This document shows, piece after piece, positions 3-28,060 of a DNA stretch of 32,000 nucleotides. A program made the position numbers and the translations under genes. Source of the DNA: Candidatus Peribacter riflensis (lineage in GTDB: Bacteria > Patescibacteriota > Gracilibacteria > Peribacterales > Peribacteraceae); contig CP013062.1 of assembly GCA_001430755.1 (NCBI GenBank), positions 1,200,001-1,232,000 of the forward strand. The letters run 5' to 3'. The notes under the pieces are model-generated. The model was not told where the DNA came from and did not search any database. It saw nothing but the letters and a program-made list of their open reading frames with translations. How positions within the stretch are numbered: position 1 is the stretch's first letter; every line of letters begins with the position of its first letter.

Positions 3-3000
3 GACTGTCCTGTCTGCGGCGATGGCACACGCGAAGATCCGGAACAGTGCGACAATGGGGGAAACAATGGCACAGCCTGCACTCCGGCCTACAGTTCTTC
101 TTGCACCTATTGTTCCTCCAGCTGCACCAATGTCACTCTTCAGGGGCCACGGTGCGGGGATGGGACGCGCAATGGCAGCGAGCAGTGTGACGGATCATCG
201 ACCCCCTGTGGTTCAGGCAAGATGTGCAACAGTTCATGTCAATGTGTTGCCACCACTCAATCCTGTCTCTCAGAAGGCCAGAATGGGGTTTTTCCGTGGG
301 CTTCGGTCACCACGCCTCTGTCGTGTTGTACCGGATTGAATCCCACAGGAAATGTTTCCGTAATCGGTCCGGGACAGTGCGGGAATCTGGGATCGACATT
401 CGTCTGCACGTATTGTGGCGATGGTCAGTGTGAGTGGAACGAAAATGAATGTAATTGTTCCAATGATTGCGTCGCACAACCGTTCTGCGGTGACGGCACG
501 CGCAATGGCAGCGAGCAGTGCGATAACGGCGCGGCGAGCAACGGAACGGCTTGCACCCCCGCCTACGGGTCAACCTGCACGTACTGCTCTTCGAGCTGTA
601 CCAATGTCACGCTCCAGGGGCTGCGGTGCGGAGATGGTTCTTGTACCGATGGTGAGCACTGTGGCAATTGTGTCGCAGATTGCGTCTGCCAGGGAGGGTA
701 TTTCTGCGCCGTCGATCAGTGTATTCCCGATAACATGATCCGCTGCGACATCGGCGATACCTGCTTGAACAGCGCAACGTGTTGCTATGACGAGGTCTCG
801 CATGTGAATAGCTGTTGCCCCAATGTTGATTCCACCTGTTGCGGGGGGAATTGTTGCCCGACGGTCGGCGGCATGTTCCGGTGCGAAAACAACCAGTGTA
901 TTCCGGTGCAGTCTTTCTCCTCCTCCTTCTCCTCCTTCTCCTCCTTCTCTTTCATCCCGCCAACGAAGTATGGCGTGACCGTCACGGGGATCCCCGCCGT
1001 CGCCTATCCCAACAGGACCTATACAGTCACGATCAGTCTTACGAACAAGACATCCCAGCAAAAGAACTTTGCCCTGACACCCAGTAATGCTGTCATTCCA
1101 GAGCCGGGTGCGCCTCCCTTGGTGTTCAACTTCGCATCCAATCTGACGTACAGTTGCTATGGCAGCAATACGGATTACATTACCTGTGGAAACTATCCAT
1201 TGGCCCCCCAGGCAACGAAAACAATCCAGGTTTCCGCAACGACGGCGGCGAACTGCGTAGCAGGCCAGACACAGGGGCAGGGTATCTTTGCCATTCAGGT
1301 CAGTGATGGCACGCTTCAGGAGCCCTACGTGCTGCAGTCCGTGACCGAATACTGTGTGGCAGCCGGATGCGGCAACGGCGTGTGGGAGACCGGCGAGGGG
1401 TGCGAAGACGGGAACACGACGAGTGGCGACGGTTGCAGCGCCACCTGCGTGACAGAGTGTGCCGATACGGACGGCGGCAATGACCCCCTCGTGAAGGGAA
1501 CGGCGACGCATTGGGCCTGTTTTAATTCGCCTGGACAGCCCACATGCGGCCTGCGGCCATTTGCAGAGACAGACTCCTGTAATGGGTCTCTCTATACCGA
1601 GTGGTACTGCGATGCAGGAACCCGGAGAATCAAGGGCGATGGTGACAGGCAGTGCCCTGCCGGGAAGACATGCGTCGGTGGGGCGTGCGTCGTGGGGGCG
1701 TCTCCTTCCTCCTCGGTGTCTGCAGTGTGCGGCAACGGCGCCAAGGAGGGCACTGAACAGTGCGACAACGGCGCTTCGAACGGCCAAGCCTGTACTCCTT
1801 CTACTGGCGGCAGCTGCTCGTACTGTTCCGCCAGTTGCACCACTGTGACGTTGCAGGGTGACTCCTGCGGTGATGGATTGGTCAGTTCCGGCGAGGTGTG
1901 CGATACCCAAGGGCCTCCGTATCCGGGCTGCCCCGCAGGCGATACGTGCTACCAGTGCACCAATTGCGTGCGGTGCGGCAACGGCGTCATAGACCCCGGC
2001 GAAGTGTGTATGGTGATTCCTGTCTGTGACATGCCCTACTCCTGTACGAGCGGACCCACGTTCTGTCCGGCAGATTGCCCCGCATCTTCCGCAGCATCGT
2101 CCCAGTCTGCTGCTGCGGCGGCGGTGTGCGCAATCCCGGTCGGTTGGAATCCCTATGACATCGTCATAACGCCTGATGGAGCAAAGGTGTATGTCTCCGT
2201 GATGGGGGATGACACAGTCAAAGTCCTCTCCACCGCATCCAACTCGGTCATGGCGACGATTTCCGTCGGTGATGCACCGGCCCATATTGCCATGACTCCA
2301 AACGGCCAAAGAGTGTATGTACTCAATCAAGAAGGCAAAAGTGTGTCAGTGATTGCCACTGCGACCAATACGGTGATCGCAACGATTCCGATCAATAAAA
2401 CACCCAAGCGTCTTGCGATCACTCCTGATGGTGCGAAGGTGTACGTCACTGCCGGGAACAACAGTGTTTCGGTCATCTCCACGACGTCCAATACCGTGAC
2501 GGCCACGGTCACCGTAGGATCTTCCCCTCTCGGCATCGCCATCACCCCCGATGGAACGAAGGCGTATGTGGCCAATGAAATTGTTGGATCAGTTTCCATC
2601 ATCTCCACGGTATCCGATACTGTCATTGCCAGTGTGTCGGTTGGGGGTACTCCGCAAGATGTCGCCATCACCCCCAACGGCACGAAGGCGTATGTATCGA
2701 ATCATAATGGCAACACGATTGCCGTCATCTCCACCGCAACCGATACGGTTTCTGCATCAGTTTCCATTCAGAAATTTTCGTCTCGCGTTGCCATCACCCC
2801 CGACGGCACGAAGGTGTTTGCGCTGAATGATTGGGAGGCCAACCTCTCCGTCATCACCACGCAGTCCAATGGGCTCAGTGGAACCATGGATGTGGGGAGG
2901 GGGCCGACAGACATCGTCTTCACTGCAGACAGTACGAAAGCGTATGTGGTGAATAAAGCGGACGATACGGTGTCTGTGATCGCCACGGCAACGCGCAATA

Positions 3001-5144
3001 TTCTGGCCACGATCCCTGTCGGGGATTTCCCCGGAGCAATCGTTCTCTCTCCTGACGGTTCGAAGGCGTACGTGGCCAATGCCGGAGGGGGGTCCATCAC
3101 CGTCATCGACACGGCGACCAATACAGGTTGTCAGGCGGCCTCTTCTTCCTCTTCTTCCTCTGCTCTCTCATCGAAGGTACCTGCCTGCCCCGATGGCGTG
3201 CTGGATGCCGGAGAGACCTGCGAAATCGGCGTGTGTTGTGGTGCAGGCTACGTATGCGATCATGCATGCCGCTGTGTGCCCGCAGGCAGCTCCGCCTCTG
3301 CCTTCTTCGCGTCGTCCTCTTCTGCACTGATTCAGGCTTCCTCCTCCTCTGCCTTCTTCGCGTCGTCCTCTTCTGCACTGATTCAGGCTTCCTCCTCCGC
3401 TTTTCCAGCGTCGTTTTTCTCCACATCTGCCTCTTCGGCTGTTTCGGCGATGTGTGGCAATGGAAATCTGGAAGGTCTGGAACAGTGTGAAACCACTACC
3501 GCGTGTGCCAACGGGGCCATGTGCATGAATTGCTCGTGCGGAGCGGTCAGCTTCTGCGGAGATGATACGGTGGATTCCCTGCGGCAGGAGCAGTGCGAGC
3601 AGAATGCAGATTGCGCCGCCGGATACGTGTGTACGACCCAGTGTCTGTGCCAGCAGACGGGTGGCCTCTGCGGCGACGGCTCCCTTGAGGGATCCGAGGA
3701 GTGCGAGAGTGGATATTCCTGCACCGTTCCCGGTGAGATCTGCAGTAACTGTCTCTGTACGCCTCCTCCCCACTGCGGCAATCGCGTTCTGGAGTCACTG
3801 GAGGAATGCGAACTCTCTGATCCCTGTGTGGCAGATCAGGTGTGCGTGAACTGTATCTGCCGATCTCCGGCGGCGTGTGGCAATGCCGTTCTCGAGTCGG
3901 GCGAACAGTGCGAGGACGACACGCACTGCCTTACAGGGCAGAGATGTGACCGCAGCGCCTGCCGATGCGAGGGGACAGCGAGAGACTACTGCGGCGATGC
4001 CGTACTGAATCAGGGCGAAGAGTGCGAGGCGAATGCCCCCTGTACCGATGCAGGCAAGAACTGCGACTTGGATACCTGTCTCTGCGTCAGGCAGCCGGTG
4101 ATTCTGGCGTGTGGCGATGCCACACTCGATCCCGGCGAAGACTGTGATATTGGCATTGCGTGCCCTGCGGGAAGCTATTGTGTATTTCCGCGGTGCCACT
4201 GTGTCGGTGCCGTATCCCGTTGCGGAAACGGCAAGCTGGAGGGATCGGAGCGCTGCGAAATTGGAGCGGGGTGTCTACTGCCAGGCGAAGTGTGCGATCT
4301 TGCCACTTGCCAGTGTGCACCGTCTGATCCGGCGGGCAGATGCAGCAATGGCCTGCTCACCGCAGGAGAGGAATGTGAAGTGGGGGTGCCGTGCCCGTTC
4401 GGGTGGGCCTGTGATTTTCCACGTTGTGTATGCCAGAATCAACCGGTGTGTGGCAACAGCGTGCTCGACCCTGGTGAGCAGTGCGAGACGAATATGGCGT
4501 GCACGGGCGATCAGCAGACGTGCGACTTTTCGCGGTGCCGGTGCACAGGGCGCATCTACGAATGCGGTAACGGCGTGCGCGATCCCGGTGAAGAGTGTGA
4601 TGACGGCAACCGGAGTACCGGCGATGGCTGTTCAGCAGTCTGCCTGCGCGAAACCCTCTATTCACAGGTGCAGGCAGGCGCGTTCTGCGGCAACGGGATC
4701 GTCGAGAACCGTGAGGAGTGTGATGATGGCAATGTGTTCTCCGGCGACGGATGTACAGCATTCTGCACGTACGAGACACTTCCTGCTATCGATACCACGG
4801 AGCAACACCCCGCCGCCTCGGCAGAGTCTTCTCTCGCACGCTCCGCCCTCTCCTCGTCAATGATTTCTACGCCTGCACAGTTCACATCTTCAGTGGCTGC
4901 CGCCTCACAGTTCTGGTCGTCTTCGAGGCCTGCCCAGATCCCGTCTGCCCCGCTCGGAGCGATTACCATTCCCTTCCCCAAGCCTTTCAGTACTGTTGCA
5001 GTTTCTCAACTCGTCCGACCTTCACTCGTGCCCTTCATCCCTGCGCAGGCTCCCATGACGCGCACCGGCCCCGAGGTGGTGACCATCCTCTCTGCCGGGG
5101 CAGCCCTGGGGTGGGCATGGCTCCGGAGACGTCGGAAGGAATAG
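3..5144 (+). CDS. Giant secreted cysteine-rich modular surface protein (5'-partial): CGDG/EQCD Cys-rich repeats, Ig-like (CARDB/DUF11-like) segment, 8-blade YVTN-type beta-propeller, 12-repeat Cys-rich stalk, C-terminal membrane anchor
   Basis: Frame 3 is open from nt 3 (DCPVCGDGTREDPEQCDNGGNNGTACTPAY...), so the ORF-track Met at 222 is internal and the gene continues upstream. Stop is TAG at 5142-5144. The unit CG[DN]G-x5-EQCDNG..NG.AC.P....C.YC...C..VTLQG..CGDG recurs at nt 15-140, 487-640 and 1726-1860. An Ig-like segment lies at about 960-1360 (LAPQATKTIQVSAT). Propeller, stalk and anchor are listed as separate features. Confidence 0.9.
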   Translation, partial: DCPVCGDGTREDPEQCDNGGNNGTACTPAYSSSCTYCSSSCTNVTLQGPRCGDGTRNGSEQCDGSSTPCGSGKMCNSSCQCVATTQSCLSEGQNGVFPWASVTTPLSCCTGLNPTGNVSVIGPGQCGNLGSTFVCTYCGDGQCEWNENECNCSNDCVAQPFCGDGTRNGSEQCDNGAASNGTACTPAYGSTCTYCSSSCTNVTLQGLRCGDGSCTDGEHCGNCVADCVCQGGYFCAVDQCIPDNMIRCDIGDTCLNSATCCYDEVSHVNSCCPNVDSTCCGGNCCPTVGGMFRCENNQCIPVQSFSSSFSSFSSFSFIPPTKYGVTVTGIPAVAYPNRTYTVTISLTNKTSQQKNFALTPSNAVIPEPGAPPLVFNFASNLTYSCYGSNTDYITCGNYPLAPQATKTIQVSATTAANCVAGQTQGQGIFAIQVSDGTLQEPYVLQSVTEYCVAAGCGNGVWETGEGCEDGNTTSGDGCSATCVTECADTDGGNDPLVKGTATHWACFNSPGQPTCGLRPFAETDSCNGSLYTEWYCDAGTRRIKGDGDRQCPAGKTCVGGACVVGASPSSSVSAVCGNGAKEGTEQCDNGASNGQACTPSTGGSCSYCSASCTTVTLQGDSCGDGLVSSGEVCDTQGPPYPGCPAGDTCYQCTNCVRCGNGVIDPGEVCMVIPVCDMPYSCTSGPTFCPADCPASSAASSQSAAAAAVCAIPVGWNPYDIVITPDGAKVYVSVMGDDTVKVLSTASNSVMATISVGDAPAHIAMTPNGQRVYVLNQEGKSVSVIATATNTVIATIPINKTPKRLAITPDGAKVYVTAGNNSVSVISTTSNTVTATVTVGSSPLGIAITPDGTKAYVANEIVGSVSIISTVSDTVIASVSVGGTPQDVAITPNGTKAYVSNHNGNTIAVISTATDTVSASVSIQKFSSRVAITPDGTKVFALNDWEANLSVITTQSNGLSGTMDVGRGPTDIVFTADSTKAYVVNKADDTVSVIATATRNILATIPVGDFPGAIVLSPDGSKAYVANAGGGSITVIDTATNTGCQAASSSSSSSALSSKVPACPDGVLDAGETCEIGVCCGAGYVCDHACRCVPAGSSASAFFASSSSALIQASSSSAFFASSSSALIQASSSAFPASFFSTSASSAVSAMCGNGNLEGLEQCETTTACANGAMCMNCSCGAVSFCGDDTVDSLRQEQCEQNADCAAGYVCTTQCLCQQTGGLCGDGSLEGSEECESGYSCTVPGEICSNCLCTPPPHCGNRVLESLEECELSDPCVADQVCVNCICRSPAACGNAVLESGEQCEDDTHCLTGQRCDRSACRCEGTARDYCGDAVLNQGEECEANAPCTDAGKNCDLDTCLCVRQPVILACGDATLDPGEDCDIGIACPAGSYCVFPRCHCVGAVSRCGNGKLEGSERCEIGAGCLLPGEVCDLATCQCAPSDPAGRCSNGLLTAGEECEVGVPCPFGWACDFPRCVCQNQPVCGNSVLDPGEQCETNMACTGDQQTCDFSRCRCTGRIYECGNGVRDPGEECDDGNRSTGDGCSAVCLRETLYSQVQAGAFCGNGIVENREECDDGNVFSGDGCTAFCTYETLPAIDTTEQHPAASAESSLARSALSSSMISTPAQFTSSVAAASQFWSSSRPAQIPSAPLGAITIPFPKPFSTVAVSQLVRPSLVPFIPAQAPMTRTGPEVVTILSAGAALGWAWLRRRRKE
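2130..3125 (+). repeat. Eight tandem ~41-aa YVTN-family beta-propeller repeats (protein level) inside gene 1
   Basis: Eight units of the form [IV]xITPDG[AT]K[AV]YVxNxxxxxVSVIxTAT[ND]TVxAT[IV]xVGxxP, for example ITPDGAKVYVTAGNNSVSVISTTSNTVTATVTVGSSP. This matches the 40-residue YVTN repeat signature (TIGR02276) as I remember it. Confidence 0.85.
3297..3398 (+). repeat. Perfect 2 x 51-bp tandem repeat in a Ser-rich linker (SAFFASSSSALIQASSS x2)
   Basis: tctgccttcttcgcgtcgtcctcttctgcactgattcaggcttcctcctcc occurs at 3297-3347 and again, identical, at 3348-3398. Confidence 0.95.
3453..4775 (+). repeat. Array of 12 Cys-rich ~33-40-aa repeats (10 x CG[DN]xxL[ED]xGE[EQ]CE-x3-4-C-x5-7-C-x4-C-x-C, then 2 x CGNGxxxxxEECDDGNxxxGDGCxxxC Myxococcus-type/DUF4215-like)
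   Basis: Read directly from the translation. Examples are CGNAVLESGEQCEDDTHCLTGQRCDRSACRCEG and, at the end, CGNGVRDPGEECDDGNRSTGDGCSAVCLRE and CGNGIVENREECDDGNVFSGDGCTAFCTYE. The last two fit the TIGR02232 / Pfam DUF4215 consensus as I remember it. Confidence 0.85.
5055..5141 (+). other. C-terminal sorting-signal-like tail of gene 1: MTRTGP + 17 hydrophobic/small residues (EVVTILSAGAALGWAWL) + RRRRKE
   Basis: Tripartite layout at the extreme C-terminus. It is closely paralleled by the gene 7 tail (27974-28057). Confidence 0.7.
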
Positions 5145-5191: not shown

Positions 5192-8100
5192 TTAGAGCAG
5201 GAGGAAGGTCAGGATACCGATGGTGATGAAGCGGGTGCCCGGGAACGTTGCGGGAGCGTTCGGAATCGGGATGCCCTTCACGGCAAAGAGCTGGAGGTTC
5301 TGCACCCACTGTCCGAGGGTAAAGAAGGTGTTGCGGTACCTGCAAGTCAACTTGCACCGGGCGGAAGTGAGATCGCTGTTGAGCTCGCCGTCATCGCACG
5401 TTTCCCGCTCGCGTCCACCCGGGGGGGTCCTGTCCACGATGCCGTCACCGCAACGGGAGTACGTGCAATTCGTGCGGCAGAGGGCATTGGGCCTGTCATT
5501 GTTCGCCTCTCCGCCATCGCACTCTTCGCCCTCCTCGACCATGCCATTTCCGCAGCCGGCGCTGGCGCTGCTCTGCTGCGAGGAGGAACTGCTCTCTTCC
5601 GCGCTCGAGCTACTGCCTGTCTGCGGCAGGAGGCCGCAATTGGTGTACGGGGAGGGGGATTCGAAGCACTGCCCTACTCCGAAGAAGCTGCCTCCGATGA
5701 ACGGGTCTTCACAGCTCTCGCGGTCCAGATCATTGAAGCACAATCCGAAGTCCTCTCCTTCCACACAGCAATTGCCCTTCTCTTTTTCAGGCGCGGAGCT
5801 TGCACTCGCTGCGGCTGCTTCATGGGAGGAGGAACCACCTTCGTCTGCAGCACTGCTTTTCTGTCCGCCCCCGGCTGTACCGCCGCCTCCCACGCTGCTG
5901 ATCTCTGCTGCTTCCTGCGAGCTGGTTTCGGCTCCGGCGGAGGATGAGCCTTCTTCGATAGGACCGGTGAAGCATCCTGCAGCGAGACAGCGTTCTTTCC
6001 CTCCGACGATGCAGAAGACCTCCTGCGGTTCCTCATTGGCCAGCAAGTTGGCGGCGAGATCTAGGTCACCTTTCTCTTCGCAGGCGAAGAACGGCTGCCC
6101 GCCGAACAGGGCATCATTCTGCCGTCGCACACAGCAGGTGCGCTTGCCCTGCGGTTTTGTACCACAGGTATCTATTTCGCAGGCCGAGAGGCTCTCGCGG
6201 AAGCTGCCATTCATCTTCTGCTGACACTTGTCATACGTATTTGCCAGAGCGTCGCACAGATTCGCAGGTGAGACGGGATCTTGCGCGTAGCAGCAGATGC
6301 CAGTCTTTTCTTTGCACGAGATCCCCTCACAGGAGGTTCCCTCTTTCACCTCTCCATCACACTCTGCCGACAGCACGCAGGCGCCGCCGTTCTTGGGGCA
6401 GCAGGGCTTCGGTTTCTGTTCCGGCGTCGTGGGGTTGCAGGGATTGGAGGGAGCAGTGCTATCACTGGGGCAGGAGGCACCGGGCTTGAAATCGCCGTCC
6501 AGTAACTCTTCGCACATCTCGCGCGTCATTTCTTTGCCCCGAGAGGTGTCGAGGCAGAGTTCTCTGGTCGTGGCATCCGGTTTCTCTCGCGTGCAGCACG
6601 CGCCTTTCTTCTGCTGGTCGCAGAGAGTAGGAGAGCAGGCAGCCGCCGATTGTGGGGCGCCGCTCTTTGCCTCGCAGGCCTTGGTCGTGAGCATTTCACA
6701 GGTGGCACCGGGACTGCCCGGAACGCAACAAGGAGCCTGTTTTTCTGTTTGGACGGTGCAGACGATTCCTTCGCAGAAGTTCTTGTCGTTGATGGGCTTG
6801 TCTGGATCGCAGTTCTCCCGCTTCATCCCAACCGCGCACTGGCTGTTCGATATTTTGGGGCAGCAGGCCACAGGCTTCTCTTCGGGTGGACAGCCATCCG
6901 ACAGACACATGCCCTTCTTCATTTCTTTGCCCTCACCGCAACTGCCGCTCTTGGGTGCGTCGGCGCAGGAGGAGGTCTTCTTTTCAGCATCCCACGTGCA
7001 GCACGCGGGTTTGTCGGAGGGGCACTCACTGCAGGAGGCGGCGAGTCCTTTGTACTCTCCTTTGAATTGCTTGCACTCGGTCTCGGTCACAGTGAGACAC
7101 TGCAGGTTCTTTGCGGCCTCCGTGCCCGTACAGCAGATCCCCTTGGGGTCCAGGCAGGGGTTCTGGCCATTGACCAGATCACACGATGTCACGCCGCCCA
7201 CCCAGCGAACAGGGGCATAGCCCCTGTAGGCTGACTTACACTGCTCTTCTGTGATGCCCTGGGTGAAGAAGGGTGAAGTGCCTCCTTGGGCATCGCACCT
7301 CTGCCCCTGATAGGTGTAGCAGCAGATGCCCAGAGGACAGGCGGCGTTCGGGCCTTGTGATGAACATTCCTTCGCGTCGGGCCTGAAGGTGCCTTTCCCT
7401 TTTTCGCATGCCTGTTTGGAGAGGAGAGAGCACGTCCCCTCTGCGGAGCAGCAGGCACGATTACAGGAATCTTCCTTGCACTCCTTGGCGCTGAAGAGGA
7501 ACTCGCCGACGCCACACTGTTCTTTGGTGAGCTGGGAACACGTTTTTTCCTGTGCTGTGCAGCAGGGGCGACGGCAAAGAGAGCTCTTACACTCCTTTTC
7601 GTTCTCCATGTACTCGCCGCTCTGCGACGCGCAGGCGCTCTTTGAGAGGAGCTTGCATCCGTCGGCGGTGCAGCAGGCGCGCACGTTGTCACAGGGGTCG
7701 TCGAAGCAGAAGGATTGCTTCTTGAATGTGCCGCCGTAGCTCGCGCAGAGGGCCTGCGGCCGTTCGCTCTCGGCGGTCGTGAAATGATCGACGTTGAGAT
7801 CGACGCAGGGGGAGGGGTCATACTTCGTTTTGGGGTCGCAGCAGGCTCCCCAGTCGTCTACGGGCTTGCAGGGGAGGCTATCGCAGTTGCAGATCTGCTC
7901 GCATTCCTCCGTGAGCGTACCCGGCCGAAGGATGGCGGTGCCCGACATTTCCTGCTCTGCGCAGGTGACGGGGCCTCCGTAGGTACACATCCAGTTGTAT
8001 GTGTACTGTGGCGGAGAACCAACGCCAAACGGCGTCAGTACTTCACGGCAGCATGTCTTCTTCGGCGGGCAACAGCAGATGCCGCCGCCAGGCATATCTT

Positions 8101-11446: not shown

Positions 11447-11453
11447 TTGATGC

Positions 11454-11462
11454 ACTATACCA
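11454..11462 (-). promoter_or_regulatory. Extended -10 promoter element TGGTATAGT, 7 nt upstream of ATG 11446 (predicts a leaderless mRNA for gene 2)
   Basis: The minus strand reads AAATTTGGTATAGTGCATCAAATGTTCAGC. The block AAATTTGGTATAGTG is identical upstream of paralog gene 3. There is no Shine-Dalgarno sequence. Confidence 0.6.
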
Positions 11463-15534: not shown

Positions 15535-15541
15535 TTGGCTC

Positions 15542-15550
15542 ACTATACCA
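15542..15550 (-). promoter_or_regulatory. Extended -10 promoter element TGGTATAGT, 7 nt upstream of ATG 15534 (predicts a leaderless mRNA for gene 3)
   Basis: The minus strand reads AAATTTGGTATAGTGAGCCAAATGTTCAGC. Box and spacing are the same as for gene 2. Confidence 0.6.
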
Positions 15551-15605
15551 AATTTCATGCACAATCGTTTCCGCCTGGCGTGAAGATCTGCGGTACCATG
15601 TTTCC

Positions 15606-21100: not shown

Positions 21101-21749
21101 CTTGTCGTGTTCCGCGGGCCGGACATGCCAGAGCTGCCAGTGCACTCTCATTCCTGCATCATCCTCTTCATCGCGTCCCGCGGTCTGCGGCAATGGCCAA
21201 CTCGAGGGAGTGGAACAGTGTGAACAGGGAGTCCCCTGCGCACTTTCGGGAAGGCAGTGCAATTTCGGCACCTGCCAGTGTGTGCTTATCGTGCCATCCT
21301 CTTCCAGCTCCAGCGCGTCATCCGTTCCGGTTACGCCGGCGTCTTCCTCGCTGTCCGCTGCCTGCGGCAACGGTGTCCTGAATACGGGGGAACGGTGCGA
21401 TACGACGGGCAATCTCGGCTGCGCCGCAAGCGAGACGTGCCAGAGCTGCACGGCGTGCACCCGCTGCGGCAACTTCGTCCTCGAGGAGGGCGAAGGGTGC
21501 GAAGTCGGCATTGCGTGTTCCTCGAGTCTGGCCTGCAACATCGGCACCTGCCGGTGCGAGACGGTCTTTAGCGGGATACAGACGCAGGCGCCTACCTGCG
21601 GTGACTTCCGCATCCAGCCGGGGGAGGACTGCGAATACGGCATCACGACGCCACAGCCGCCCTGTACCGGCAACGCTGTCTGCAACGTGCAGACCTGTCG
21701 GTGCCCCGCCGGCACGGCGCGCCACCCCCGTAACGCCCGTCTTCAGTGA
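18102..21749 (+). CDS. Large (1215 aa) secreted protein: signal peptide/anchor, 7-blade RCC1-like propeller, DUF11/CARDB-like Ig segment, CxDSDGG module, Cys-poor unknown domain, C-terminal Cys-rich repeats; no C-terminal anchor
   Basis: The N-terminus MFRAFRTLFSAAFLKGGFGLVGIVALAWAL is hydrophobic. The Ig-like segment reads GGTIVYRVTATNNGSQPLSQIDVYV...LAAGQSVTVDVGF. The C-terminal repeats include CGNGQLDPGEQCGEPGLSCSAGRTCQSCQC and CGNGQLEGVEQCEQGVPC. Stop is TGA at 21747-21749. Confidence 0.88.
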   Translation: MFRAFRTLFSAAFLKGGFGLVGIVALAWALNQDVQSPGFLRAQTATSGALVCWGNDYGYAPPAGDWTDVTAGSAFACAIRAADGTVACWGDNPYGQTNAPAGRFQKIDAGTMHMCGIKEDGSVACWGTNSHGESNPPTGRFIDITASLSYSCGIKEDGTIVCWGENVKGQLNAPTGTFVQLTAEGNHGCALKADGTVMCWGENVSGSTTPPAGTFRLVEAGYAYTCGIKTDGTLQCWGHGGEGQTTAPAGAFSDVELGVNHACGLRQDGTIVCWGMSVGGQTNPPTGTFTDIGVGLYHGCAIRVSAGNSSSSVSVQSCPLGYTCSKITSFSCGSLQLPLCTLEYSGSCGTPSCQGVCFRCQSSSSSTPSASITGSVQLPSSVPRGGTIVYRVTATNNGSQPLSQIDVYVQSAAANTFDASLSDSRCVGGTNTQSVANCAIPTLAAGQSVTVDVGFRLGAALSCSAVINSTVSVRSTTPSTVWNSELLLTPVTCVSSSSSSSVQGSSCVDSDGGMNLDVAGTVTSTSCSGFPPTCITETHADECDDRPGYENDIVEYFCGGATTTDCANGKICRNGACVLSASSSSSAGQCIEGMQYWVPVTLTPAKDLRASWPGTGDASYVAYLKSTNEVYLSRLSLSGLSITKATDARISGGSSLVDVVALTPSDIFVVYDDSASQRCKAVLVRWSGGNAVIGTPVDVPASQYNPRCDTVLIARKLSEGRIALLWGLDQNYPTRLGATTATVDVAAGTIAFGPIPQELSYFVGTYQGSPFGDRGKQVEVVVRDANTIAIIGRAGGAIVSQPRWFANLFAWTTSRSGGVGAAGMWVRDCAINGSTFTCDDQSGGSVGATGYEVSGAKVGSNFVVAPTLIGSGPGVSVEGKTVSGWGGAQIPEWENSWTSFYTFVPLSNGQFMITAKTQNSTMAALGRITTSDIVWSAITSPPGSKVVIPAGAQDKFLFFYYPDSGQSNGQTAVTAGQYTADCPGCGNGQLDPGEQCGEPGLSCSAGRTCQSCQCTLIPASSSSSRPAVCGNGQLEGVEQCEQGVPCALSGRQCNFGTCQCVLIVPSSSSSSASSVPVTPASSSLSAACGNGVLNTGERCDTTGNLGCAASETCQSCTACTRCGNFVLEEGEGCEVGIACSSSLACNIGTCRCETVFSGIQTQAPTCGDFRIQPGEDCEYGITTPQPPCTGNAVCNVQTCRCPAGTARHPRNARLQ
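18243..19010 (+). repeat. Seven RCC1-like repeats (~38 aa; G.V.CWG.N..GQ...P.G.F..[IV].[AL]G..H.C[GA][IL]K.DG)
   Basis: There are seven CWG motifs: VCWGNDYG, ACWGDNPYGQ, ACWGTNSHGE, VCWGENVKGQ, MCWGENVSGS, QCWGHGGEGQ and VCWGMSVGGQ. Each is followed by P[AP][TA]G.F and a ...C[GA][IL]... strand. Confidence 0.8.
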
Positions 21750-21754
21750 TCCGC

Positions 21755-24700
21755 ATGATTCTTTCTTCCCTCCGCTTCCGGCAGATTGCCATCCTCCTCG
21801 CACTCGTCGTGACGGGGATGCTCATCGGCAACTTCGTGGGCAGTGGAGGGCGCTGGCAGGCGCAGGTGGCGCCGCCGGCCGTCTGCGGCAACAGCCGGTG
21901 CGAGCTCGGCGAGCGGAGGACGCTGCGCATCCCGTCACTTCCGATTTTCAGAACCGAGAATGACGGTGAGGTCATCATCGGACACGCGGTCTCGTACGCG
22001 GGCGATACCGACGGCAACGGCGCGGGCGACCTGCTCGTTGTGGGGACAGAAGCAGATTACGGGTCATACGATTCTGCTGCCCGCAAGAAGGTGTGGCTCG
22101 TGCGCATGGAACAGGACGGACGGATGAAATCGTACAGCCAGATCGCCGGACCGGAGTGGGGGTACCAATATGCTGAAGGAGGTTTCGCTGCAGGAGTTAC
22201 GCTGGTGCAAAATCCCCAGGGTACCCCCGTGTACGCGGTCAGCAGCAACGAAAACAGCTATCCGAACTACACGGCTATCCGTTTCTATGACCAGTCAGGA
22301 GGTGCGATGGGAACATCCGGCGACGGCATCACCAATCTGCCGCATCACGTGCTCGCCGGCATCGGCGACATCGACGGCAATGGCATCGGCGATCTGGCGG
22401 TGGCCAACCAGTATGCAGACACCCCCTACGGCATGGGCAAAATCACAGTGGTGTTGCTCGAAGCGAATTACTCGGTCAAGTCTACGCATGTCATCGCTTC
22501 GGAAGGGGACGGTTTCGGCACCGATGATCTGGCGATGGGCGGTCGGTCGATCACAGCGCTCGGCGATCTGGATGGCGATGGCTTGAAAGAAATCGCCGTG
22601 GGTAACGGCAATACCGGCGGCGGTGAGATGGGTTCGGTGTACATCTTGTCGCTGCGCGCGGATGGCAGTGTGGCAGACAAGCGGCTGCTGACACCCGGCA
22701 GCGATTTCACGCTGCAGGGCGAGCTCAACGGGTTTGCCAACAGCCTCGCGGGGGTCGGCGACTGGAACGGCGACGGCGTGCCCGATCTCGCCGTGCTGTC
22801 GTACGAGTACGTCGAACACCCTCCTCTTGTCGGGTCACACGCGTCGCCTGTCATTCACATTCTCTTGCTCACGGCGCAGAAAGGGGTGGCGGGTACGCAA
22901 TCCTTCCGGTATGCGGATCTGGGGGCGTTCGCCGGAGCCGCCGTTTTCGGCAACGGCTGGCCGCTTGCTGCCATGCCCGATCAGGACGGCGACGGCAAGA
23001 TGGAACTGATCTTGGGCGTGCCCGGCGACGGCTCGTGCGGGGGGCAGATTTCGAACCCGCAGGGGGCAGTGCACGTGATCCTGTCGCGCGCGATGACCGC
23101 GTGCCCGGGCGACTGCAATTTCTGCCCGCAATTGTCCTACACGCCCGCGCGGTCATCGCGGTACTTCTTTACTCCCGGCTACAGCACCCTTCCCCCGCTC
23201 GCGAGCTGCGGTAACAGCCAGTGCAACGCGGGCGAGATGAATCCGGTTGTGCTGCAGGGGGCGGATGCGAATCAGCCGTACGTTGCGCTCTCTCTGTTCA
23301 TGGGCACGAAATCCCTCGATACCTTGGGCGATTTCGACGGAGACGGCGTCGATGATCTGGTACTGGGGGGCGTGACGCAGAATGTGGCGGGTGTGGATCG
23401 TTACGGCATGAACGAGGTGCAGATTGTCCGTCTCAATTCCAACGGCACCCAGAAATCGGTCACCCGCATCTACGAAGGCACAAGTGGGCTGCAGACGGGC
23501 GATGCCGATGGTTCGTACATTGGCGCCATCGTCGCCTCGATCGGAGATCTCGATGCGGACGGCGTGCGCGATATTGCCGTATCGGCATTCCCGCAGTCCC
23601 GCACTCCCACATCGTATGCAGTATGGATTCTGCTGCTGCGGTCGGATGGCACGGTGAAGTCGGCGCGCAAGATCGCAGCGGGGCAGGGCGGATTCACCGG
23701 TTCCATTGCGGAGAAGTTTGGTACGGCGCTGGAGGGAATCGGCGACTTCGACGGCGACGGCGTGCCCGATCTGGCCGTGGGTGATCCTGGTTACAGCACC
23801 TACAACACGGCCAAGGAAGGTCGGGTGCACTTGCTCATGCTCAACCGCAACGGGACGGTGAAATCCTCCAGGACCCTGTGGGCCTCGTCGTTCACGGCTG
23901 TGCCGAATACCAGCGACATGCTGCGTGCCTCGCACCCGTACATCCGGTTCGGGTCTGCGGTTGCATTTCTGGGCGACGTGCACTCTGACGGCAGAAAGTT
24001 CCTGGCGGTGGGGGGCGGCGAGAGCGTCTGGACCATGGCGTTCAATGTCGACGGGAGCCTGAACACGGTCAAGCGCACGCAGGGGACCGCAGTGTCACCC
24101 GCCGGCGATCAGGATGGCGACGGAAAGACAGACCTCATAATTTCGTACTCGCCTGATGAGCCTGCAGAAATCTGCCCTGAGTGTGAGCCAACCTATGACA
24201 CCGCGTGGGCTGCGTACTACTCCGTTCTCACGGACGGCACACTGGAGCAGCTGTGGAATGCCAGCTACGGCAGTCTCTATCTTCCGGGTGGTGGAGGAAC
24301 ATGGTGGGGGAATCTTCCGGGGCGGGAGGTGGCGACCATCCGCGACTTAGACGGTGACCAGAAGCACGAGTTCATCATGCTGGATAGCGGCTCATTTACC
24401 TGCAGGGGGTCGTCGCACGTCGGCTTGGCGTGGCTGCTCTTCTCCGGCAGTTTGGGGCCCCGCTGCGAGGCCGATTGCGCCAGTGTGAATTTCTGCGCGG
24501 TACAGCAGCAGGCACCCGTGTGCGGCAACGGTACGGCGGAGTCGGGAGAGCAGTGCGGCGAACCCGGACTCTCGTGTTCCACCGGTCAGACATGCCAGAA
24601 CTGTCTGTGTGTGGGAGGTACCTCCTCTTCACAGCAGAGCTTGGACGGTACGTGGGTGAATTGCCCGGCAGGGTGGGCCTGCAACAAGAGTCTGGATAGT

Positions 24701-27700
24701 GGAGTCTGCAATACGCGGTCGTTGAATCCTCCTCCTCCGGGATGCACAACAGAAATGGGTACCACCTGCGGCACCGCCGCCTGTTCCGGCACCTGTTCCC
24801 GTATGGTCTGCGCCAGCTCCTCCTCGAGCAGTGCCGTATCGGTATCCGTGAGCTGCGGCAACGGCATCAAAGACGGCAGTGAGCAGTGCGAAAGCCCCGC
24901 AATGCGTCAGACCATGACGACGGGTCCCCGGCCCGGATGGGTTCGACACGGCGACTTCAACGCGGATGGCTGGCAGGATCTTGTAACGGTCAATTACAGT
25001 TCGGATAATGCCAATAATTCCATTTCCGTTTTTCTCAACAGAGGCGACGGTACATTCTTTACCAAAGTCGATTACCCGTTCACACCGCAGCACCAAGTCT
25101 TATCCATAGATGTGTACGATATGAATGACGACGGAAAGGTGGATTTCATCGTGAGGAGCGGCGGAAAGCTCCGCGTTCTCAAAGGCAACGGGGACGGTAC
25201 CTTCCAGTCTCCAGCATCTTTTTTACCTGGTGATCCGTTTACCACTGGGATTGGTGCGGCATTCGGCGATTTCAACGAAGACGGGCGCACTGATGTTGTC
25301 ACCGGCATCACTCTCTCCAGCGGTGTGCAATTCTTCGCAGGGCAGGGAGGCGGGGCGTTTGCGGCCGGCGTCACTGCTGCCGGATATCCGAGCCACTTGC
25401 ACATCGTTACTGCGGATTTCGATGCCGACGGGCATACGGACGTCGCTTTTTTGCCTACCAACAGCGGGAATGATCCTTCCGATGCCACGTTCGAGGGGTC
25501 AGTACAGGTGTTGTACGGCAATGGGGCGGGAGCGTTCACCGCCGTGCCGATTCCGCAACCATCTTCCTCTGTTTCCAACATGATGGGATTTTTCGTCCGG
25601 GATGCAAACCTGGACGGACGTCCCGATCTCATCGTGCGCGGCAACGGTTCGGTTTCTACCATCTGGATCAACAATGGGAACCGCACGTTTCAGGAGAAGA
25701 CCACCAACGGGGGCCCAATGGGGGAATCACGCGCGTTCTTCGATATCGATGGCGACGGAAAAATGGATGTCATCACGAGTGCCTATTCCACCGGTATGGG
25801 CAAGCAGCTGGAGGTACACAAGGGCGTCGGGGACGGGTCGTTCCAGAACACTGCCAGTTACGTCATTCCACTGCCGCATTCCTATACCTGTCTGATGACC
25901 GCTATCATCGGCGCAGATTTCAATCGTGACGGCAAACTGGACATGGCTGTGGCCCATGGGAATGCCTGCCAGGACAACATCACAAACGCCGATGCCGTCT
26001 CGGTATTCCTGAGCCCCTGCGCACCGGGGCAAACCTGCGCGAATTGTCAGTGCAGCGGCGGCGTGCCGGTTTCTTCCTCAAGCTCCAGTCTTCCGGTGGT
26101 CGTTTCCTCCTCCAGCCATTCCTCCAGTGCCAGCATCATCGTCGGCTCCTCCTCCAGCATCGCCGTGGCCTCGTTCTGTCCGAACGGAGTCATCGAACCT
26201 GCGGAGCAGTGCGAGATCGGGTACGCCTGCCCCACAGGGTCCACGTGCAATTCCTTCTGTGTGTGTTCTGGCGGTGCGTCCTCCTCCTCTTCTATTGTTT
26301 CTTCCTTCCCCTCTTCTTCTCTCTCTTCCATTCCCTCCTCTGTGAGCTCGGCACAGAGCTCCGTTTCGATTGAGGTGTTCTGCGGCAATGCCGTGCTGGA
26401 GGGTACCGAGACGTGCGAAGCGAATCATCCCTGCCCCACGGGTCAACTCTGCATGAACTGTCTCTGCTCAACACCCAGCTACTGCGGCGACAACGTCGTC
26501 AATACGGAGGATGGCGAACAGTGCGAATCGGACCCCGACTGTTCGCAGGGTGAAGTGTGCACGTTGAATTGTCTGTGCCATGCAGGCACGGGAGGGAACT
26601 GCGGCAATGGGACGATGGAAGCGCTGGAGCAGTGCGAGCGCAACCATCCGTGCGGAGAAGGAATGCAGTGCCAGGCGTGCCTGTGCGTCGAGGTGCCGCG
26701 TTGCGGGAACAACGTCCGTGAGCGAGGGGAGCAGTGCGAGACGAACGTCTTCTGCCCTGTGGGCTCCTCGTGCGTGAATTGTCTCTGCCAGCAGGGCATG
26801 GATTGCGGAGACGGCAATCTGGCTGCGGGTGAACAGTGTGAGAAGGACAGCCACTGCCTCGAAGGGCAATTCTGCAATATGCTCGCATGCCAGTGCGAAG
26901 GAGCCGGCGCAGGGTGCGGCGACGGCATGCTGGAGGGCTCGGAACAGTGCGAACTGGGCAGCCCGTGCCAGAACTTCGAAGAAAGCTGCGATCTCTCGAC
27001 GTGCAGGTGCACGACCGATCCGATCATCTCCACGTGCGGCAATGCGATGGTGGATGCCGGCGAAGATTGCGACATCGGCATGCCCTGCGGCGAGGGAGAG
27101 ATCTGTAATTTTGCCAATTGCCACTGCATGTCGTGGGCGACGCGCTGTGGCGACGCACAGCTCTCGGAAAATGAGCAGTGCGAGATCGGTCTGCCGTGTG
27201 CCGACCTGGCGCAGGCGTGCGACCTGAGCCGGTGTGTCTGTGCGGCACTGGAACCAGACGCGAGCTGCGGCGATGGTCTGGTGGCTGTCGGCGAGGAGTG
27301 CGAGGTGGGCGTTCCCTGTCCATTCGGGTGGTCCTGCAATTACTCGCGTTGCCAGTGTCTCAATCTGCCGATCTGCGGCGATGGGTCGCAGGATGCCGGA
27401 GAACAGTGTGAGGTGACCCTGGCCTGTTCCGAGAGCGGCATGATGTGCGATTTCTCGCGCTGTCGCTGCGTCGGGAATCTCGTGGCCTGCGGGAACGGCG
27501 TGCTTGATCCCGGTGAGCAGTGTGACGACGGAGACACGTCTGCCGGTGACGGCTGCGATGCCCGGTGCCAGCGGGAATGGATCACGATGGTGGGCGGAAC
27601 ATCGATCTGCGGCAATGGTATTGTGGAGCTGCCGGAGGAGTGCGACGACAGTAATGTGCTTTCCGGAGACGGATGCTCGGGTGATTGCCGTTTGGAGATT

Positions 27701-28060
27701 GGCGGTGTGATACCTAATCTCGATACTCCCGGGTTGAGCATCTCGCCGGAACATGCTGCAGGGCCGACCATTCAGGCAGGACAGATGGCACAGGGCGGAC
27801 AAATACAGCCGGGTGGCAGTGCGGCAAGCTCGGGCGTCCCGTCACAGGGTGCCGGAACCGGGCCGGAGACCATCGTCTTCCCCGGGCAGCAGGGTGTAAT
27901 TTCGCCGTTCGCGCAGCAATCACCTGCCTACTACGGTTCCGTCATTCCTCCCTTCGCTCCGGTGAGCGGACCTGTGGGGAGCACCGGACCGGCGGCCGTT
28001 GCGGTGATCGCGGCGGGGGCGGCGAGTGGGTGGGCGTGGATGCGGAGACGGCGCAGGTGA
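21755..28060 (+). CDS. Giant (~2101 aa) surface protein: N-terminal signal-anchor, three FG-GAP/VCBS (integrin-alpha-like) beta-propellers separated by Cys-rich knots, Ser-rich linkers, 12-repeat Cys-rich stalk, C-terminal membrane anchor
   Basis: Single ORF. ATG 21755 gives MILSSLRFRQIAILLALVVTGML. An alternative GTG at 21746 overlaps the gene 6 stop as GTGA. Stop is TGA at 28058-28060, directly after RRRRR. Confidence 0.9.
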   Translation: MILSSLRFRQIAILLALVVTGMLIGNFVGSGGRWQAQVAPPAVCGNSRCELGERRTLRIPSLPIFRTENDGEVIIGHAVSYAGDTDGNGAGDLLVVGTEADYGSYDSAARKKVWLVRMEQDGRMKSYSQIAGPEWGYQYAEGGFAAGVTLVQNPQGTPVYAVSSNENSYPNYTAIRFYDQSGGAMGTSGDGITNLPHHVLAGIGDIDGNGIGDLAVANQYADTPYGMGKITVVLLEANYSVKSTHVIASEGDGFGTDDLAMGGRSITALGDLDGDGLKEIAVGNGNTGGGEMGSVYILSLRADGSVADKRLLTPGSDFTLQGELNGFANSLAGVGDWNGDGVPDLAVLSYEYVEHPPLVGSHASPVIHILLLTAQKGVAGTQSFRYADLGAFAGAAVFGNGWPLAAMPDQDGDGKMELILGVPGDGSCGGQISNPQGAVHVILSRAMTACPGDCNFCPQLSYTPARSSRYFFTPGYSTLPPLASCGNSQCNAGEMNPVVLQGADANQPYVALSLFMGTKSLDTLGDFDGDGVDDLVLGGVTQNVAGVDRYGMNEVQIVRLNSNGTQKSVTRIYEGTSGLQTGDADGSYIGAIVASIGDLDADGVRDIAVSAFPQSRTPTSYAVWILLLRSDGTVKSARKIAAGQGGFTGSIAEKFGTALEGIGDFDGDGVPDLAVGDPGYSTYNTAKEGRVHLLMLNRNGTVKSSRTLWASSFTAVPNTSDMLRASHPYIRFGSAVAFLGDVHSDGRKFLAVGGGESVWTMAFNVDGSLNTVKRTQGTAVSPAGDQDGDGKTDLIISYSPDEPAEICPECEPTYDTAWAAYYSVLTDGTLEQLWNASYGSLYLPGGGGTWWGNLPGREVATIRDLDGDQKHEFIMLDSGSFTCRGSSHVGLAWLLFSGSLGPRCEADCASVNFCAVQQQAPVCGNGTAESGEQCGEPGLSCSTGQTCQNCLCVGGTSSSQQSLDGTWVNCPAGWACNKSLDSGVCNTRSLNPPPPGCTTEMGTTCGTAACSGTCSRMVCASSSSSSAVSVSVSCGNGIKDGSEQCESPAMRQTMTTGPRPGWVRHGDFNADGWQDLVTVNYSSDNANNSISVFLNRGDGTFFTKVDYPFTPQHQVLSIDVYDMNDDGKVDFIVRSGGKLRVLKGNGDGTFQSPASFLPGDPFTTGIGAAFGDFNEDGRTDVVTGITLSSGVQFFAGQGGGAFAAGVTAAGYPSHLHIVTADFDADGHTDVAFLPTNSGNDPSDATFEGSVQVLYGNGAGAFTAVPIPQPSSSVSNMMGFFVRDANLDGRPDLIVRGNGSVSTIWINNGNRTFQEKTTNGGPMGESRAFFDIDGDGKMDVITSAYSTGMGKQLEVHKGVGDGSFQNTASYVIPLPHSYTCLMTAIIGADFNRDGKLDMAVAHGNACQDNITNADAVSVFLSPCAPGQTCANCQCSGGVPVSSSSSSLPVVVSSSSHSSSASIIVGSSSSIAVASFCPNGVIEPAEQCEIGYACPTGSTCNSFCVCSGGASSSSSIVSSFPSSSLSSIPSSVSSAQSSVSIEVFCGNAVLEGTETCEANHPCPTGQLCMNCLCSTPSYCGDNVVNTEDGEQCESDPDCSQGEVCTLNCLCHAGTGGNCGNGTMEALEQCERNHPCGEGMQCQACLCVEVPRCGNNVRERGEQCETNVFCPVGSSCVNCLCQQGMDCGDGNLAAGEQCEKDSHCLEGQFCNMLACQCEGAGAGCGDGMLEGSEQCELGSPCQNFEESCDLSTCRCTTDPIISTCGNAMVDAGEDCDIGMPCGEGEICNFANCHCMSWATRCGDAQLSENEQCEIGLPCADLAQACDLSRCVCAALEPDASCGDGLVAVGEECEVGVPCPFGWSCNYSRCQCLNLPICGDGSQDAGEQCEVTLACSESGMMCDFSRCRCVGNLVACGNGVLDPGEQCDDGDTSAGDGCDARCQREWITMVGGTSICGNGIVELPEECDDSNVLSGDGCSGDCRLEIGGVIPNLDTPGLSISPEHAAGPTIQAGQMAQGGQIQPGGSAASSGVPSQGAGTGPETIVFPGQQGVISPFAQQSPAYYGSVIPPFAPVSGPVGSTGPAAVAVIAAGAASGWAWMRRRRR
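21950..23090 (+). repeat. FG-GAP-type propeller 1 (Ca-binding-like D.DG.G..D[LI].[VI] loops)
   Basis: Loops are GDTDGNGAGDLLVVG, GDIDGNGIGDLAVAN, GDLDGDGLKEIAVGN, GDWNGDGVPDLAVLS and PDQDGDGKMELILGV. Confidence 0.8.
23260..24447 (+). repeat. FG-GAP-type propeller 2
   Basis: Loops are GDFDGDGVDDLVLGG, GDLDADGVRDIAVSA, GDFDGDGVPDLAVGD, GDVHSDGRKFLAVGG, GDQDGDGKTDLIISY and RDLDGDQKHEFIMLD. Confidence 0.8.
24925..26013 (+). repeat. FG-GAP/VCBS-type propeller 3 (seven repeats)
   Basis: Loops are GDFNADGWQDLVTVN, YDMNDDGKVDFIVRS, GDFNEDGRTDVVTGI, ADFDADGHTDVAFLP, RDANLDGRPDLIVRG, FDIDGDGKMDVITSA and ADFNRDGKLDMAVAH. Confidence 0.8.
26381..27697 (+). repeat. Array of 12 Cys-rich repeats, collinear repeat-by-repeat with 3453-4775 of gene 1
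   Basis: Repeat 7 is CGNAMVDAGEDCDIGMPCGEGEICNFANCHC here and CGDATLDPGEDCDIGIACPAGSYCVFPRCHC in gene 1. Repeat 9 is CGDGLVAVGEECEVGVPCPFGWSCNYSRCQC here and CSNGLLTAGEECEVGVPCPFGWACDFPRCVC in gene 1. The last two repeats, CGNGVLDPGEQCDDGDTSAGDGCDARCQRE and CGNGIVELPEECDDSNVLSGDGCSGDCRLE, are Myxococcus-type. Confidence 0.88.
27974..28057 (+). other. C-terminal sorting-signal-like tail of gene 7: VGSTGP + 17 hydrophobic/small residues (AAVAVIAAGAASGWAWM) + RRRRR
   Basis: The layout and the GWAW[LM]RRRR ending are the same as in the gene 1 tail (5055-5141). Confidence 0.7.

Follow-up and report, generated by a model that had tools for sequence, protein, structure and literature searches.

The 32,000-nucleotide stretch of the Candidatus Peribacter riflensis genome analysed here (contig CP013062.1, positions 1,200,001 to 1,232,000, referred to below as the window) carries two giant genes for cysteine-rich proteins, g1 and g7, whose products end in the same long module. 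It consists of a Cys-rich unit (R0), a Ser-rich linker, twelve further repeats (R1-R12), a low-complexity spacer and a C-terminal tail. An ancient duplication gave rise to two clades of the module, both of which are found in the window; purifying selection has preserved the identity and length of every individual repeat, and different head domains have repeatedly been joined to the module. With a probability of about 0.7, we read the shared region as a surface-display module of this bacterium and its relatives. The genes correspond to open reading frames (ORFs) 1089 (g1) and 1095 (g7) of a published cluster of 14 genes for Cys-rich proteins. The 2016 description of the genome (PMC4736985) reported the giant proteins, their cluster and a weak similarity to Myxococcus repeats, characterized the giants by size, Cys content and that similarity only, and regarded them as probably extracellular attachment factors. 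The collinear, position-conserved module of 13 units, its two clades, the exchange of heads and the tail with its TGP motif are new with respect to that work. The parts of the module are as follows.

3186..3278, + strand: R0 of g1 (CPDGVLDAGETCEIGVCCGAGYVCDHACRCV), the true first unit of the module; it aligns with R0 of g7 and occupies position 0 in all module-bearing relatives
3279..3452, + strand: Ser/Ala-rich linker between R0 and R1 of g1, including a 51-nt tandem duplication
3453..4562, + strand: R1-R10 of g1, six-Cys type CGNGxLExGEQCE....C..G..C..C.C
4563..4772, + strand: R11-R12 of g1, four-Cys DUF4215 / myxo_disulf_rpt type (PF13948 33.4 bits, TIGR02232 81.5 bits)
4773..5063, + strand: Ser/Ala/Pro low-complexity spacer of g1, 97 aa, with the conserved island ITIPFP
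5064..5144, + strand: C-terminal tripartite signal of g1, TGPEVVTILSAGAALGWAWLRRRRKE, and stop codon (tail pattern match; TIGR03382 17.3 bits)
26177..26269, + strand: R0 of g7 (CPNGVIEPAEQCEIGYACPTGSTCNSFCVCS)
26270..26380, + strand: Ser-rich linker between R0 and R1 of g7
26381..27487, + strand: R1-R10 of g7, six-Cys type
27488..27694, + strand: R11-R12 of g7, DUF4215 / myxo_disulf_rpt type
27695..27982, + strand: low-complexity spacer of g7, 96 aa, with the conserved island TIVFPGQQG
27983..28060, + strand: C-terminal tripartite signal of g7, TGPAAVAVIAAGAASGWAWMRRRRR, and stop codon (tail pattern match)

The original prediction, made from the letters of the window, held that the two proteins end in 12 Cys-rich repeats in the same order, followed by a low-complexity spacer and the same anchor. 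Global alignment is indeed collinear through repeats, spacer and tail. Located by regular expressions and alignment, the 12 repeats occupy aa 1078-1517 of g1 (nt 3453-4772) and aa 1546-1983 of g7 (nt 26381-27694). Their predicted start coordinates were exact; the shared module itself begins one repeat earlier, since R0 (consensus CP[DN]GV...E.CEIG..C in both genes) and the Ser linker belong to it, which moves its start to nt 3186 and 26177. In the relatives the homology likewise starts exactly at R0, immediately past a poly-Ser tract. The predicted position-specific features are present in both genes: the long first loop of R2 (two residues longer), GEDCDIG[IM].C in R7, GEECEVGVPCPFGW[AS]C in R9 and the CDD[GS][ND]..[ST][AG]GDGC type in R11-R12. 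In both, a spacer of 97 and 96 aa, respectively, is followed by TGP, an Ala/Gly-rich hydrophobic segment and RRRR. Spacer length is also kept across relatives although similarity within the spacer is low, and its islands are clade-specific, ITIPFP marking the g1 clade and TIVFPGQQG the g7 clade. The duplication in the g1 linker (3290-3398, unit of 51 nt, 2.1 copies, 98% match in Tandem Repeats Finder, TRF) encodes SSSAFFASSSSALIQAS; the linker differs in length among strains, because P0124, a full-length strain variant of g1 (1985 aa), has three copies of the unit.

Repeats at the same position of g1 and g7 are on average 51% identical, the off-diagonal pairs 35%. Repeat lengths in g1/g7 from R1 to R12 are 34/34, 38/39, 35/34, 34/34, 38/37, 40/40, 37/37, 40/40, 36/36, 38/38, 41/40 and 29/29, and the period vector [34, 37-39, 34-35, 34, 37-38, 40, 37-38, 40-41, 36, 38, 40-41] is kept in at least 14 proteins. 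A permutation test that used four proteins per clade gave the diagonal as the best assignment; its score was attained by none of 200,000 random permutations (0/200,000), while permutations restricted to repeat sub-types attained it only at the rate at which the identity permutation is drawn. A coincidence among generic Cys-rich repeats might be considered, as the frame CGNG..E.GE.CE is common to all of them and any pair is therefore about 35% identical; against the permutation result and a position-specific length pattern shared by so many proteins the chance of it is negligible, and collinearity by chance was ruled out on these two grounds.

Clustering of the repeats by gene, named beforehand as the outcome contradicting the prediction, was not found. 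In a neighbour-joining tree covering 8 proteins and their 96 repeats, R2, R5, R7, R9, R10 and R11 are monophyletic by position across both clades, R1, R6 and R12 nearly so, and R3, R4 and R8 are split only by clade; no protein's own repeats group together in this tree. Conservation between the clades is highest in R9 (66%), R12 (64%) and R10 (56%).

The two copies had also been described as clearly diverged in DNA, with many synonymous differences, which is borne out by 56% overall identity of the repeats, 39% identity at third codon positions and use of the same codon at 107 of 222 identical residues (48%). Non-synonymous divergence (dN) between the g1 and g7 repeats is 0.45 and synonymous divergence (dS) is saturated. 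With NG86, LWL85 and YN00, 10 of the 12 repeats, as well as the concatenate, gave a dS that was saturated or undefined; therefore the comparison is stated qualitatively, as dN << dS, and not as a ratio per repeat. BLASTN aligned R9-R12 as the only stretch (65%). Exact matches do not exceed 17 nt, and the longest is out of register (codon shuffles gave up to 15 nt), the exact-match analysis against these shuffles revealed no gene-conversion tracts between the g1 and g7 modules, and TRF detected no tandem array at the DNA level within the g1 and g7 repeats. Maintenance of the likeness by concerted evolution or gene conversion, between the genes or among repeats of one gene, could draw on the within-gene pairs that match same-position similarity (R5 and R10 of g1 are 55-61% identical) and on the difficulty of separating R1 from R3 and R6 from R8. 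It is nevertheless very improbable: across the clades six positions are strictly monophyletic and another three almost are, the synonymous sites have reached saturation, and the longest exact match lies off register. The repeat tree rules such evolution out both between and within g1 and g7; saturated synonymous sites together with the lack of conversion tracts lead to the same rejection and show the duplication to be old. The view of the cassette as old and conserved as a unit is upheld by the positional clustering, the saturation and its retention across relatives.

Copies in relatives were sought with a module profile against 1.84 billion representatives. In at least 12 distinct proteins, taken as clusters at 50% identity and 901-4293 aa in length, the whole module forms one stretch at the very C-terminal end: P0121 (4293 aa), P0001 (901 aa), P0122 (corresponding to g7), P0123, P0124 (corresponding to g1), P0126-P0131 and P0135. 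In these relatives R12 begins 114-168 aa before the C-terminus. The module tree consists of the g1 clade, with the tail RTGPE..L.SAGAALG.AW, and the g7 clade, with GP.G.TGPA..AAGAA.G.AW; both clades co-occur in at least two other genomes (locus L017 with L025, and L014 with L030). Between species the module is 60-66% identical, the heads 37-47% or absent. The headless, shortened derivatives P0008 (R5-R11) and P0098 (R8-R11) retain the positional order. At L079 3736-12274, in the distant Peregrinibacteria metagenome-assembled genome (MAG) JBAWYM01, P0002, an 11-repeat variant, is located downstream of an rluB and beta-CASP RNase gene pair; the same pair is present in the window, therefore the locus is syntenic and old, and it appears to have expanded in Peribacter into the 14-gene cluster.

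The heads that precede the module in the window are:

3..3185, + strand: head of g1, truncated at the 5' end by the window; Cys modules and a YncE/lactonase-type beta-propeller
21746..26176, + strand: leader and head of g7; two FG-GAP / FG-GAP_3 propeller regions and Cys modules

The statement that the N-terminal heads differ completely stood for the globular domains, assigned by Pfam to different families (YncE/lactonase propeller in g1, FG-GAP in g7), and not for other small Cys modules, which are common to both heads. Within the g1 clade there are the YncE/lactonase propeller (g1, L017), FG-GAP_3 (L051/P0130) and mixed architectures (P0127, P0128). In the g7 clade FG-GAP heads occur in g7, L014, P0126, P0129 and P0131, and others are a Fib_succ_major domain (P0001), a small Cys-only head (P0123/L025) and, with a length of about 3700 aa, the multi-propeller head of P0121. 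YncE-propeller and FG-GAP heads, among others, occur across both clades, from which it follows that heads were exchanged on a conserved module. A plain duplication of the whole gene, with heads that diverged and no shuffling, would make the cassette just the slower-evolving end of two paralogues. Both genes have the overall layout of leader, Cys modules, beta-propeller-type domain and module, and a gapped BLASTP alignment extends from position 481 of g1 and 904 of g7 onward, as such a duplication would leave them. The head families themselves make it improbable, as does their distribution: L051/P0130, with a module of the g1 clade, has an FG-GAP_3 domain 53% identical to the second FG-GAP_3 region of g7, which is absent from L014/P0131, where the module is of the g7 clade; in L051 nothing matches the g1 propeller; and the g7-clade module also stands behind the heads of P0001, P0123 and P0121. 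Simple whole-gene paralogy of g1 and g7 was rejected on this basis.

R11 and R12 are bona fide members of the TIGR02232 / PF13948 type (cut-offs 20.8 and 27 bits), with TIGR02232 scores of 81.5 bits in g1 and 84.3 bits in g7, and PF13948 scores of 33.4 bits in g1 and, just below the cut-off, 26.2 bits in g7. For R1-R10 alone TIGR02232 gave 10.3 bits in g1, below the cut-off, and a marginal 21.2 bits in g7, just above it, the match being limited to profile positions 2-16, and PF13948 stayed below its cut-off at 14.4 bits. The Cys hairpin in their C-terminal half has a weak match to PF01683, the EB module (30.2 bits for g1), and a PDB sequence search with the module found no relative. Ten of the 13 stalk units have at most marginal coverage by Pfam and NCBIfam models.

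The tail was searched for by a degenerate DNA pattern, TGP-x7-[AS]G[AI]A-x-G-x-AW-x-RR, in one genome each of 185,579 species. In the window it matches only the ends of g1 and g7, with zero matches expected. Across the species genomes there are 69 loci (71 matches), all matches lying at the extreme C-terminus of a long ORF, and several genomes have two to four of them. The loci are labelled Peribacteria, Peribacteraceae or Peregrinibacteria in 63 of 69 cases; the other six come from one unclassified MAG (3 loci), a 'Patescibacteria group' MAG (1) and contigs binned as Dehalococcoidia (1) and Planctomycetaceae (1). The latter two, L011 and L065, carry typical TGP-tailed ORFs at a GC content of 0.59-0.62 (that of the window is about 0.59), and their placement outside Peribacteria is likely a matter of mis-binning. 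Upstream of the part fixed by the pattern, the tail logo displays Pro four residues before the Thr (T-4) in 42 of 69 tails and Gly two residues before it (T-2) in 41 of 69. Proteins found by homology (P0001, P0002, P0004, P0038, P0054, P0098, ORF1096 and ORF1097) carry the same tail, therefore the pattern is not what makes the hydrophobic segment look conserved. In the majority of TGP-tailed proteins DUF4215-type repeats in variable number stand in place of the 13-unit stalk, and the anchor is distributed much more widely than the 12-repeat stalk.

Scored against NCBIfam release 20, the tails gave matches that were marginal or sub-threshold and mostly limited to the generic helix and Arg part. 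GC_trans_RRR (TIGR03382) reached 17.3 bits on the g1 tail (cut-off 15.85), over the helix and RRR only. MYXO-CTERM (TIGR03901) gave 10.4-15.3 bits against a cut-off of 20, and its invariant Cys is missing, no Cys being present in the last 60 aa of g1 and g7 or in the 69 related tails. PEP-CTERM (TIGR02595, cut-off 16) scored 18.3 bits on the g1-clade tail of L017 and 14.1-14.7 on others, neither window tail being among its reported matches, with no PEP motif in the tails. The LPXTG anchor model (TIGR01167, cut-off 15.9) scored 15.9, 15.5 and 13.2 bits on three related tails, which do not include those of the window. As in LPXTG anchors, a hydrophobic segment and a basic tail stand at the extreme C-terminus; the logo of the 69 tails departs from the LPXTG-type pentapeptide, with Pro two residues before Thr, in having Pro mostly at T-4 and Gly mostly at T-2. 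GVDTG_CTERM (NF058571, cut-off 29) gave at best 15.7 bits, on one related tail, and literature searches on the GVDTG signal found nothing relevant. Nor did our literature searches find a paper naming the P-x-G-x-TGP tail signal, and nothing on it was seen in papers examined for sortase and surface-protein content.

Judged from sequence, the architecture appears to resemble both TraA and LPXTG proteins, yet the tails carry the defining motif of neither family. TraA and other MYXO-CTERM surface proteins of Myxococcus xanthus (PMC3325183, PMC11980579) likewise have a variable recognition head, a Cys-rich acidic stalk with TIGR02232 repeats, like R11-R12 here, and a tripartite tag of short motif, hydrophobic helix and Arg-rich tail, with many such proteins per genome. 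The Peribacter tail differs by the lack of the invariant Cys, the heads by being YncE or FG-GAP propellers with no PA14 domain in Pfam, and the stalk by its fixed number and order of repeats and by ten of 13 units being a six-Cys variant barely detected by TIGR02232 and PF13948. We therefore regard the module as an analogue and not a member of the TraA group. Hosts from the candidate phyla radiation (CPR) are also thought to have no outer membrane, unlike Myxococcus. LPXTG proteins of Gram-positive bacteria share with the giants a signal peptide, a binding head, a repetitive stalk, a Pro/Ser-rich spacer that spans the wall, and a motif containing T-G followed by a hydrophobic segment and a basic tail, and sortase homologues are reported in the Peribacter genome (PMC4736985); the motif P-x-G-x-T-G-P and the sequence conservation of the hydrophobic segment set the Peribacter proteins apart. 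The PEP-CTERM/exosortase and PGF-CTERM/archaeosortase systems similarly combine a three-residue signature abutting a hydrophobic helix with an Arg cluster, and their signals are confined to one lineage in several copies per genome, whereas neither a PEP nor a PGF motif occurs in the Peribacter tail. We know of no exosortase or archaeosortase homologue in Peribacter-type genomes, for which no exhaustive search was made.

We propose that the module would work as four consecutive parts: a rod of 13 small, presumably disulfide-bonded units (R0, the Ser linker, ten six-Cys units and two DUF4215-type units); a probably disordered Ser/Ala/Pro/Gly spacer of about 97 aa; the P-x-G-x-T-G-P motif, abutting an Ala/Gly-rich hydrophobic segment of 17 residues; and an Arg/Lys tail. 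After export by the Sec pathway the C-terminus would be held in the membrane by the hydrophobic segment and the basic tail, and a sorting enzyme may cleave at or near TGP and fix the protein to the envelope; sortase is the sole family of sorting enzymes reported in the Ca. Peribacter riflensis genome. The spacer would then span the wall and S-layer, and the stalk, being of fixed length, could keep beta-propellers and other interchangeable heads at a defined distance from which to attach to other cells or surfaces. Export, retention and processing are suggested by the layout, by known sorting signals (PMC11980579) and by Gram-positive wall proteins; localisation, disulfides and cleavage are predictions by analogy with these systems.

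A sorting enzyme was looked for in about 700 kb of collected loci using an approximate Staphylococcus aureus SrtA query. It gave one weak match, subsequently identified as a sortase by Pfam, and jackhmmer iteration added only its orthologue. This 257-aa sortase (L012 5600-6373, - strand; PF04203 63.7 bits), with an orthologous ORF in L037, is located about 0.9 kb downstream of a TGP-tailed gene of 1514 aa, the two genes being convergent. DsbB and two long sortase A homologues are among the published annotations; an 'exosortase' entry is missing from the gene table, and for rhomboids it offers just a very weak hit (PMC4736985). The listed sortases, the missing exosortase entry and the adjacency in L012 and L037 together make sortase the leading candidate enzyme.

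Several observations weigh against the display reading as a whole or against its enzymatic step. An AlphaFold2 model of R1-R12 of g7, made from an alignment of 7 sequences, is of low confidence (mean pLDDT 54, pTM 0.17), with a disordered spacer and a single beta-hairpin in each repeat; therefore the beads-on-a-string rod, including its geometry and length, is putative. Ca. Peribacter is thought to be anaerobic, and extracellular disulfide formation is assumed. Sortase adjacency is seen in just 2 of 69 loci, which are orthologous (L012, L037), with the genes convergent, and no sorting enzyme was found in the neighbourhoods of P0002, P0129 and P0098. The motif is P-x-G-x-TGP, with Pro at T-4 and Gly at T-2, and not LPXTG, and the conserved AAGAA.G.AW within the hydrophobic segment is atypical of sortase substrates, being a better fit to intramembrane or exosortase-like enzymes.

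Processing of the tail by a sortase is for these reasons a tentative reading, somewhat short of an even chance. The same standing, a little under even odds, is given to the reading that the tail is no sortase substrate at all and serves as a permanent transmembrane anchor or is processed by an intramembrane or exosortase-like enzyme specific to Peribacteria. Besides the motif, it draws on the strong conservation of the small-residue-rich hydrophobic segment, seen in homology-found proteins too, on the scores above cut-off for PEP-CTERM (18.3 vs 16, g1-clade tail) and GC_trans_RRR (17.3 vs 15.85, g1), and on the lack of an adjoining sortase gene in most inspected loci. The published gene table, which has two sortase homologues, no 'exosortase' entry and a very weak rhomboid hit, speaks for the sortase, as do the sortase gene beside the TGP-tailed gene in L012 and L037 and the Ser/Pro-rich spacer before the motif, which is the classic layout of wall-anchored Gram-positive proteins. 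A wider proposal has a slightly lower chance again: the tail might be an undescribed sorting signal specific to Peribacteria with an enzyme of its own, either a divergent sortase or a novel intramembrane enzyme, the 13-unit stalk a fixed-length ruler with position-specific contacts, especially at R9, that presents exchangeable heads at a single distance from the cell, and the whole a modular adhesin system for symbiotic attachment.

An attached life on other cells is assumed for Peribacter and other CPR bacteria, and under the wider proposal modular adhesins would underlie the proposed symbiotic attachment of these ultra-small organisms. The module would define a family of displayed proteins that can be recognized from the tail alone, and the tail is a candidate new sorting signal that could be used in partial phylogenetic profiling to find the processing enzyme. 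A constant stalk with swapped heads predicts surface fibrils of defined length. Annotation would gain as well, as 'hypothetical', 'pappalysin' and 'DUF4215' are the present labels of proteins with the module.

The window corresponds in gene order and protein lengths to ORFs 1089-1096 of the published genome (Table S4, PMC4736985), and an unchanged RluB is encoded on GCA_001787775.1 and on assemblies from the Rifle aquifer. The first gene, g1, lies on the + strand from before nt 3 to 5144, its frame 3 being open from nt 3 and its 5' end cut by the window. N-terminal hydrophobic leaders are present in the giants and, with the annotated DsbB, speak for export and oxidation. The remaining genes are:

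5192-11455 and 11542-15564, - strand: two Cys-rich giants
15606-16430: rluB
after rluB, ending at 17980: beta-CASP RNase gene
18102-21749, + strand: g6, with RCC1 repeats, DUF11, a large unassigned domain and five six-Cys repeats
21746-28060, + strand: g7, with FG-GAP repeats
28118-32000, + strand: ORF1096, 1595 aa, starting at 28118, 58 nt past g7, and continuing beyond the window end (on in L075 16373-25155)

The two giants on the minus strand have in common the N-terminal leader MFSLRF.ELALATFLTLVVTSL and a C-terminal module of another kind, namely two DUF4215-like repeats followed by ...FTLGQWVQNLQLFAVKGIPIPNAP...ITIGILTFLLL. This end is a hydrophobic stretch without a basic tail and represents a second anchor type within the cluster.

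ORF1096 and ORF1097 (1289 aa, YncE propeller) share a different and shorter collinear stalk, composed of two DUF4215 repeats, four to six six-Cys repeats and two more DUF4215 repeats, and the same TGP tail; they form a second pair with the same tail and different heads. The 3' end of g6 overlaps the start of g7 by 4 nt, and g6 has neither spacer nor anchor, while P0054, its homologue from another Peribacter, has the spacer and the TGP tail. A small Cys module, W..C..G..C....C........C..SC.G.C.R..C, which no Pfam model matches, recurs in several giants directly past repeats of the 'GEPGLSC' type and is located at aa 960-1020 of g7 (window about 24620-24810), at about aa 310-360 of g6, and in L025 and L051.

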